From the NCBI RefSeq assembly GCF_055900595.2, contig NZ_CM148325.1: 64,000 bases of DNA, one strand, 5' to 3'. This document shows positions 22,501 through 24,891 of the stretch, in pieces (position 1 is the first letter of the stretch; each line of letters starts with the position of its first letter). The position numbers were made by a program.

Positions 22501-24891
22501 TGGATCAACGACTGGCGATGTTTAAATCAGGCAAAAATGAGCCACGCATAAAAGGTAGTTATTGATATCAAAGGCCCACGGGGATCGGCTGTGGGCCTGT
22601 GTTAATTAGTGGTTATTCGCTGCCAGATCGGCTTCGCTTAGCTGGGTGGCAGCGAGCACCAGGTCACGATCAATGCCCTGTTCCAGCATGCGCAAGGCAA
22701 TTTTAATGGCTTGTTCATGCATGCCTTCCTGCCAGCCAATTTGATGCCCTTCCTGCCGTAGCCGTTCAGCAATAGTCATCAATCTCTCCTTTTGTAGTGG
22801 TGAACGTTCGGCAATCTCCTCAATAAAGCGGGTGAAACGGGAGGTATCGCCGCATTGCAGCAGATAATTAAACAGCGTTTGTAGCTGGCTGTCATTAGTG
22901 AAGCCTCTAACCAAAAGCGTGGTGATCCTGTCGACCATACCGATTAAATCGCGGTCGCGAATATGCTTTTGAATCAGTTCAAGCAGAGCTATACGCCGAT
23001 GTTGCATGATCTCATCGTCAGGTACGATGGTGATATCCACCAACGGAAAAGCTTCGGTGTACAACTGCCGGGCAAGTTGCGGATCATCAAACTCATCCAG
23101 CCAGTTAAGTGAGTATGGGTAGGGCGAGGTTTCGCCGTGATAAAACAGCAACGGCACCACCAGCGGGACTCTGTCATAGCCTTTGTCCAGGTGACGCTGC
23201 ATGGCGGCGGTGGCATAGCGCATTAGCCGAAAAGCCATATTCTTTTCTGCGGAACTTTGATGTTCAATCACGCAGTAGATATAGCCGTCACCATCGCTGG
23301 TTTCCACCGACCACAAAACATCCGAGTAGTAAGCGCGTAAACTTTTTTCAATAAAGCTGGTGGGTTCCAGGCGTAAGGTTTGCAGGTTGCAAAGTTTACG
23401 CAGTGGCTCCGGTAGATGTATTTCGAGAAAATCCCGCGCGGTTTCGGGCGAGAACATAAAGGTTTTAAACACCGCATCATGCGGGGAGGAGGTTGTTGGT
23501 TCGGTCATGGTTGTCCGTCACCTGATATTTATGATGACGCGACATTACGGGGATCTCAGAACAATGACATCTGCCAGTTTCTGCCTTTGCGAGACGTTTT
23601 CAGAAGAATTTTCAAAGCGATGCAACGCATACACTGGATGCGGAATCACGTACGCAGAAATGCCCGATAAGCAATGCGCTTACCGGGCATCACAAGGAAG
23701 ATTAAGACAGCGCCTGGGCCAGCAGCGTAATCGGGTGCTCGCAGCGAAGGCTTGTAGACATTTCAATCTGCCATTTGCAGGTTTCGCAGTCGGTGACCAC
23801 CAGATCTGCGCCGCTCTCTTCTATCTGGCGGAACAGTGGTGCGCCGATGGCTTGTGAGGTGGGGTAGTTCTCTTTTTTGAAACCGTAAGTTCCGGCAATA
23901 CCGCAGCACTGGGAATCCAGCACCGTTAACTCAAGCCCCGGGATTTTACGCAACAGCTCCAGGGTGTAGAGCGTCCAGCCCATTTTTTCCATATGGCATG
24001 GTGTGTGATAAACCACTTTCAGCGGCAGCGATTTCAGCGGTAACGTTTTGCCTTCGTCCAGCTTGCGCCACAGCCAGCGGGTCGCCAGTTCGATATGATC
24101 GCGCAAGCCTTTGTTGTCGACATTCAGCACTTCCGGGTATTCGTCACGCAGGGCAAATGTACAGGTTGAGGAGGTGGCAATCACCGGAATGCCTTTTACC
24201 CCTACCGCTTCGCGGATCGACTCTACATTCGTGATTGCTTGTTTACGTGCTTTATCGGTAAAACCGTTGGCGATGAGCGGCACGCCGCAGCATTTTTCTT
24301 TGCTCAGCAGTTGTACGCCGGTGTCCATCGCGTTGAGCACTTTAATTAAATCTTTACCTAACTGCGGATGGTTGTAGTTAACGAAGCAGCCGTGAAAGAA
24401 AGCCACCTGGTCTTTATATTGCGCTTGCTGAGCCGCCACGCTGCGATACCAGCGACGAAACGTACCGAAGGAGTATTTCGGTAGCGTGCGGCGATGATCG
24501 ATTTTTAACGCCGCATCAAGCAACTGCCGTACTGGTTTCAGCGAGGTAGCGGTGTTGACGATTGGAGCAAACGGCGTGGAAACGCTACCCATCAGGTCGG
24601 TATGACTCAACACAAAATTGCGCAGCGACGGGCGCGTGGTGTCATATTTCGCCCGCGCGCGCTGGATGATATCGCCAATCTTCACATCGGACGGGCAGGC
24701 GACTTCGCAACGTTTGCAGTTAATACAATATTTCAGTGCCTCGTCATACAGTGCACCATCTTTTAAACGCAGACGCTCGCCATCCGGCCCGGCTTGTTTT
24801 GGCCCCGGATAGCTGGGATTCACCCGGCTCACCGGGCAGGCGGTGGTGCAGACGGTGCACTTAATGCAGTTTTCGAAGCTGGTGTCGTTCA

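Follow-up and report, generated by a model that had tools for sequence, protein, structure and literature searches.

The 64,000-nucleotide stretch of DNA considered here (hereafter the window; contig NZ_CM148325.1 of NCBI RefSeq assembly GCF_055900595.2) carries, between the rhm and glp operons, the Rpn-family gene rpnE (yfaD). Taking the evidence together, we think it probable that rpnE is a core-gene nuclease built as a nested toxin-antitoxin, in which a long product (RpnE-L) contains the start of a short one (RpnE-S), and that the single-module form found here is the ancestral one in Escherichia. The open reading frame (ORF) itself is the chromosomal core gene rpnE, which is already known. 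It begins with ATG and runs on the minus strand through 300 codons to a stop without interruption, and its product scores 701 bits against the NCBIfam RpnE equivalog NF007418 (cutoff 583), compared with 429 bits against the RpnA equivalog, which is under that model's cutoff of 583. PF04754 (Transposase_31, YhgA-like) matches residues 8-209 with an E-value of 5.3e-88 and 294 bits (cutoff 21), covering profile positions 1-202 of 203. Protein identity is 95% to K-12 RpnE (b2244), with which the locus is syntenic, against 62% to RpnA, 67% to RpnB and 50% to RpnC, and RefSeq labels a 100%-identical stretch, lying between yfaU (rhmA) and glpC, as rpnE. The 2.2-kb neighbourhood spanning yfaU (rhmA), rpnE and glpC was found by megablast in 5,421 of 5,426 complete E. 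coli genomes, on the chromosome each time. The preliminary description of this DNA, which had named the gene and its family from the sequence alone, was thus correct on both counts.

Assignment to the PD-(D/E)XK nucleases is supported by the signature residues, all of which are present. D11, D63, E82, Q84, R94 and the PDDEI motif align at the same positions as in RpnA, RpnB and RpnC, and mutation of the five individual residues in RpnA abolished some or all of its activities (PMC5350276). A search of 1.84 billion cluster representatives returned 7,160 relatives, of which 79 diverse full-length ones were compared; each of the five residues is conserved in 68-76 of these (86-96%). A confident AlphaFold2 model of RpnE built on the alignment of those relatives (predicted local distance difference test score, pLDDT, 90.7; predicted template modelling score, pTM, 0.76) places H21-31, E40-47, E62-70, E73-82, H91-108 and E116-123 in the alpha-beta-beta-beta-alpha-beta order that is the PD-(D/E)XK topology, followed by a helical region that closes with one long helix (237-276) and a pair of short ones. 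For the nuclease part, Foldseek returned nothing significant from the PDB, and a PADLOC scan of RpnE gave no match. The ratio of nonsynonymous to synonymous substitution rates (dN/dS) for the nuclease domain is 0.038-0.064 against three other Escherichia species and, because it is so low, the domain appears to be under purifying selection.

Several lines of evidence point to a second product encoded within the first. Codon 244 is an in-frame ATG at 22779-22777 with a strong Shine-Dalgarno sequence, AAGGAGAG, just 5' to it, and the alignment with PDB 7TH0, the crystal structure of the RpnA-S antitoxin, begins exactly at RpnE Met244 (E-value 0.005). Methionine occupies this internal-start column in 65 of the 79 relatives. 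Over the 250 nt upstream of the internal ATG and the ATG itself, the window and K-12 are identical at 248 of 253 positions; in K-12, retapamulin profiling (Ribo-RET) revealed internal initiation in all five rpn genes, apparently at the major site of each (bioRxiv 10.1101/520783), and tagged RpnE-S, RpnE-L and YpaA proteins have been detected by sequential peptide affinity (SPA) tagging (Zhong et al. 2023, PMC10400941). Met244 could, then, give the C-terminal module separately as a 57-residue RpnE-S, whose translation in the present strain we infer. A Pfam scan of RpnE-S and of K-12 YpaA returned only sub-threshold noise, with no DUF4351. Neither the nested toxin-antitoxin model nor the absence of a separate ypaA gene had been picked up in the preliminary description.

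How such a pair may work is suggested by its relatives. For RpnA, RpnB and the plasmid-encoded RpnP2, RpnL is a toxic nuclease and RpnS its antitoxin, the two binding via their shared C-terminal helix (PMC10400941). The specificity of RpnL/RpnS pairing is set by how many four-residue repeats this helix contains, as shown for RpnC, and RpnP2 protects against T-even phages (PMC10400941). By homology to RpnA, RpnB and RpnP2, and in view of the K-12 rpnE expression data, rpnE may be read as a toxin-antitoxin pair of gene-within-gene design. The toxin would be RpnE-L, a PD-(D/E)XK nuclease that cleaves DNA, and RpnE-S, presumably the more abundant product, would bind RpnE-L through the shared long helix and hold it off. 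Release of this inhibition, for example upon phage infection or at alkaline pH, would then permit DNA cleavage.

Alleles differ in architecture at the 3' end of the gene. K-12 has an rpnE of 299 codons followed by the 186-nt ypaA; in the window, which is shorter by 195 bp, ypaA is missing as a separate gene. Pairwise alignment showed that the last 23 residues of the window protein (the 'beta' tail) match K-12 ypaA and not the K-12 rpnE tail GFEREIVLATTQLTDADIPNCH (the 'alpha' tail). We compared 11 E. coli loci, 10 of them complete (that of UTME-10 is cut by the insertion sequence IS2). All five two-copy genomes carry the alpha tail in rpnE and the beta tail in the downstream gene, and all five single-copy genomes carry the beta tail. 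Across the 10 complete alleles the number of extra four-residue units (KxEG/LQxG: KLEG, WQEG, LQKG and similar) ranges from 0 to 8, with none in the window; Tandem Repeats Finder (TRF) detected repeats with a 24-nt period in the long ZH063 allele and no tandem repeats in the window, consistent with its zero extra units. Among 60 genomes taken at even spacing from the 5,420 matching E. coli genomes, 24 (about 40%) have the single-copy architecture, as in O157:H7, O104:H4 and O111:H11, and 35 have the two-copy architecture of K-12; in the remaining one, UTME-10, rpnE is cut by IS2.

The polarity of this difference was set by outgroups. With a degenerate DNA pattern based on the N-terminus specific to RpnE, rpnE was located in E. 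albertii, E. whittamii, Escherichia sp. E1V33 and Escherichia sp. MOD1-EC7003. Each of the four has one module ending in a beta-type tail, carries 2-5 extra repeats and shares with the window both its neighbours and its downstream hairpin. Because all four are single-module with a beta tail, this form appears to be ancestral in Escherichia, the alpha tail and ypaA being derived within E. coli. If so, it is the in-gene alpha tail that would be the novelty in two-copy strains, while ypaA would preserve the ancestral antitoxin. In the account of Zhong et al. (2023, PMC10400941), ypaA is a copy lying downstream that deletion or fusion can remove, and to this our comparison would add that the copy keeps the ancestral tail. 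Fusion of the N-terminal part of rpnE with ypaA, a route given in that study, was considered as the origin of the window allele and set aside; given the outgroups, secondary fusion or deletion in the window's own E. coli lineage is the less parsimonious explanation. The ypaA-like Rpn fragments that the preliminary description had proposed looking for in the flanking sequence are absent, and tblastn and blastn searches of the whole window found no second Rpn-related copy, only rpnE itself. As a separate observation, the 1.2 kb at 22540-23720 are 90-95% identical to the corresponding sequence in 5401 of 5420 genomes, compared with 95-99% to nearly all genomes for the flanking 21 kb, and much of the extra divergence lies between glpC and rpnE and at the rpnE 3' end.

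Table 1. Coordinates of rpnE, its parts and its flanking elements in the window.
Feature	Position	Strand	Details and basis
rpnE (yfaD) coding sequence, product RpnE-L	22606..23508	-	300 aa + stop; ORF list, PF04754, NF007418, RefSeq WP_032303428.1
Transposase_31 / PD-(D/E)XK nuclease domain	22882..23487	-	residues 8-209; D11, D63, E82, Q84, R94, PDDEI motif (163-167)
Nested in-frame ORF, predicted RpnE-S antitoxin	22606..22779	-	57 aa, starts at Met244
Internal Shine-Dalgarno AAGGAGAG	22784..22791	-	last base 4 nt upstream of internal ATG; sequence read
Basal four-residue repeat tract	22723..22758	-	residues 251-262; hypervariable insertion point after G262; 0 extra units here
Beta-type C-terminal tail	22609..22677	-	residues 278-300; K-12 ypaA type, not K-12 rpnE type
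GC-rich hairpin in yfaU/rhmA-rpnE spacer	22572-22598		terminator scan + folding
glpC-rpnE intergenic region	23509..23701	-	glpC terminator-like hairpin + rpnE 5' region

A nuclease toxin of this kind has to be reconciled with the published record for K-12, where RpnE was inactive for recombination, toxicity and SOS induction, with no reason offered (Kingston et al. 2017, PMC5350276). Over residues 1-243 the K-12 and window proteins differ at four positions, P4S, S20T, L107Q and P155L (K-12 state second). Of these, L107Q and P155L (codons at window 23188-23190 and 23044-23046) occur in no other E. coli allele examined and in none of the four outgroups. Counting genomes by 33-mers centred on each single-nucleotide polymorphism, the K-12 base was found in 355 of 5,426 genomes for L107Q and in 356 for P155L, with the window base at codon 155 in 5,030; nearly all of the carriers sampled for the K-12 bases can be recognised as K-12 strains or laboratory derivatives of these. 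L107 is part of the core helix H91-108, and 68 of the 79 relatives (86%) have L, I or V at this position. P155L was also considered as a change at a family-wide conserved site, a notion that we rejected as position 155 is variable over the 79 relatives. Because L107Q hits a conserved hydrophobic position and is nearly confined to K-12 among the carriers sampled, we hypothesise that the 'inactive' label may not apply to the window allele. The setting of the K-12 assays may also be counted towards such a reading, as RpnE-S was co-expressed and chromosomal YpaA was present; Zhong et al. point out that the 2017 constructs co-expressed RpnS (PMC10400941). That the window RpnE, with L107, P155 and a single beta-tail module, is an active nuclease toxin with a nested antitoxin, the inactivity in K-12 being an artefact of the allele, is nonetheless a tentative proposal that we regard as possible rather than probable.

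The same K-12 result can be read in the opposite direction, with rpnE as a domesticated remnant, catalytically dead or in decay, that is kept only for its small C-terminal protein or by chance. This is the reading implied by the K-12 product name, 'inactive recombination-promoting nuclease-like protein', and beyond the three negative assays it draws some support from damaged alleles: the rpnE of E. whittamii is interrupted by a premature stop at codon 185, its 77-aa RpnS ORF being intact, and that of UTME-10 is truncated by IS2 after about codon 211. Occasional loss of rpnE does, therefore, happen. Decay is, however, difficult to square with catalytic residues that are all intact, with nuclease-domain dN/dS values of 0.04-0.06 across species and with a near-full-length match (at least 80% of a 1181-bp segment spanning rpnE) in 5410 of 5426 genomes. 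The assays that suggest it were, moreover, made on the K-12 allele with L107Q and P155L, carried by some 355 genomes of which those sampled are almost all K-12, the first of these changes falling where 86% of relatives have L, I or V, and on constructs that co-expressed RpnE-S. We consider this explanation unlikely.

A further possibility, advanced in the preliminary description, is that rpnE is a mobile-element-like, recombination-promoting nuclease that causes local rearrangements such as a nearby island. There is some basis for this in the family, as overexpressed RpnA-D raise RecA-independent recombination (PMC5350276), and Zhong et al. speculate that RpnL may initiate recombination that makes repeats and downstream copies (PMC10400941); the 3' end of rpnE is indeed a hotspot for repeat and duplication polymorphism. 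DNA endonuclease activity and RecA-independent recombination have, however, been published only for RpnA-D (PMC5350276), and K-12 RpnE, inactive in all three assays, is the one paralog without an effect on recombination, toxicity or SOS; the promotion of RecA-independent recombination attributed to Rpn proteins finds no support for RpnE. Nor does the gene show any of the mobile-element features tested. No terminal inverted repeats or target duplication were found at rpnE, only the terminator hairpin and chance matches of 12-20 nt inside neighbouring genes; its GC content (0.49-0.51) is genome-like; and in 5420 of 5426 E. coli genomes it sits at a single, fixed place on the chromosome, with no plasmid copies, as it does between glpC and yfaU/rhmA in E. 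albertii, E. whittamii, Escherichia sp. E1V33 and MOD1-EC7003. The RefSeq name 'ISNCY family transposase' was therefore rejected, the gene failing every transposon test applied (repeats, variable locus or copy number, foreign GC content). This is in keeping with Zhong et al. (2023, PMC10400941), who conclude it to be very unlikely that Rpn proteins act as transposases and argue against rpn genes being transposons. rpnE appears, then, to be neither mobile nor a relic. The earlier statement that it is the only mobile-element-like gene in the window survives in part: annotation transfer over 2000-64000 found no other transposase or integrase gene, but rpnE itself fails the tests for a mobile element.

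The island meant in that description is most likely the low-GC islet (31-33% GC) at about 30480-32220, an accessory segment between glpQ and inaA. It contains an open minus-strand ORF (30699..31805) of 368 aa, Asn/Lys-rich and without a Pfam match, which is labelled a frameshifted hypothetical protein in near-identical genomes, and it is adjoined by LysR (yfaH-like) gene fragments. A role for rpnE in forming the islet finds no support, as the two lie 7 kb apart with no junction feature, and the islet (at least 80% coverage) is present in 1,044 of 5,426 E. coli genomes (19%) against 5,420 (99.9%) for rpnE; a link was rejected for want of any co-variation over these genomes. Closer to the gene, STEC306-type strains have the rhm operon deleted beside rpnE, so that yfaY abuts a 462-bp 3' remnant of yfaU (STEC306 locus 7226-7687) that also occurs in 12 of the 60 sampled genomes, and MOD1-EC7003 has different rhm-side deletions, equivalent to window 19959-20311 and 20417-22463, that are independent of those in STEC306. 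As a link between rpnE and rearrangement these deletions are circumstantial at best: the deletion endpoint is about 0.5 kb from rpnE and bears no diagnostic signature, and in the window itself no rearrangement adjoins the gene. A rearrangement-causing, mobile-element-like rpnE is in our judgement very improbable.

In the immediate surroundings of rpnE, the convergence with rhmA and adjacency to glpC noted previously agree with the coordinates and strands. yfaU, on the plus strand, ends at 22565 and converges over a 40-bp spacer on rpnE, which ends at 22606 on the minus strand. The spacer hairpin can form on both strands (-15.9 and -23.3 kcal/mol, z -3.6 and -4.2), is kept 3' of rpnE in the outgroup Escherichia and is likely to be a bidirectional terminator shared by yfaU/rhmA and rpnE. 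Upstream by 193 bp lies glpC (23702..24892, minus strand), with a terminator-like hairpin of its own in the interval (about 23659-23691; -25.4 kcal/mol, z -4.1). A consensus sigma-70 promoter scan returned no site for rpnE or its internal start, so neither the rpnE promoter nor an internal promoter was located, and an Rfam scan of 22300-23900 gave no match. More widely, annotation transferred from near-identical collinear genomes gives nothing but housekeeping genes within 2000-64000, namely men, arn, rhm, glp, nrd, yfaL, gyrA, the yfaA-P cluster, ato and rcsC; the closest relatives have an IS3 in yfaL, and the window yfaL is without it. Against the nearest genome, the window shows 20-72 mismatches per 2 kb in the men-arn region up to about 18 kb, about 0-1 mismatch per 2 kb at 22-41 kb and 100.0% identity at 43-64 kb, which suggests the boundary of a recombination mosaic near 18-20 kb. 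Of the 5426 genomes, only 8-9 reach 99% identity or more with the segments of the window that were searched.

The gene, its family, the nested small protein and the gain and loss of ypaA are all published already, and the discovery value of the present analysis is accordingly small. It does bear on annotation, in that neither 'ISNCY family transposase' nor the K-12 name 'inactive nuclease-like protein' should be transferred uncritically to the window allele, the latter resting on an allele with substitutions nearly confined to K-12 strains. The apparent restriction of L107Q and P155L to K-12, as judged from the genomes compared, is a small new point. The survey of alleles gives a clean polarity, with the single beta-tail module as the probable ancestral state, and could guide work on how antitoxin specificity evolves in Rpn proteins.

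Set beside the systems already described, RpnE may be likened from the literature to the plasmid RpnP2-LS (Zhong et al. 2023), which is of the same family and the same gene-within-gene design; RpnP2 differs in being plasmid-borne and protecting against T-even phages, no defence phenotype being known for RpnE. The likeness to RpnA (YhgA) and RpnA-S (PDB 7TH0) extends from the 62% identity to catalytic residues identical in number and position, to the same opening 11-residue stretch in RpnA-S and RpnE-S and to a three-helix C-terminal module in both, although the first helix of RpnE-S is 8 residues longer. RpnA is, however, a paralog at another locus, and it is for RpnA, not RpnE, that nuclease, toxicity and antitoxin activities have been demonstrated. 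K-12 RpnE occupies the orthologous glpC-yfaU locus and has the same internal Shine-Dalgarno and ATG and the same basal repeat tract; it differs in its alpha tail and in the separate 61-aa YpaA/RpnE-Ss (b4543), which carries the beta tail and one KLEG repeat, whereas the window has a single beta-tail module and neither ypaA nor L107Q and P155L. Similar in form are the single-copy rpnE genes of O157:H7, O104:H4, STEC306, E. albertii, E1V33 and MOD1-EC7003, with the same single beta-tail module abutted by the same terminator. These differ at a few tail residues and in their extra repeats, which number none in the window, 2 in O157, E1V33 and MOD1-EC7003, 3 in E. albertii and 4-5 in the others, except that the STEC306 gene, although its neighbouring rhm genes have been lost, encodes 300 aa with zero extra repeats, exactly as in the window.
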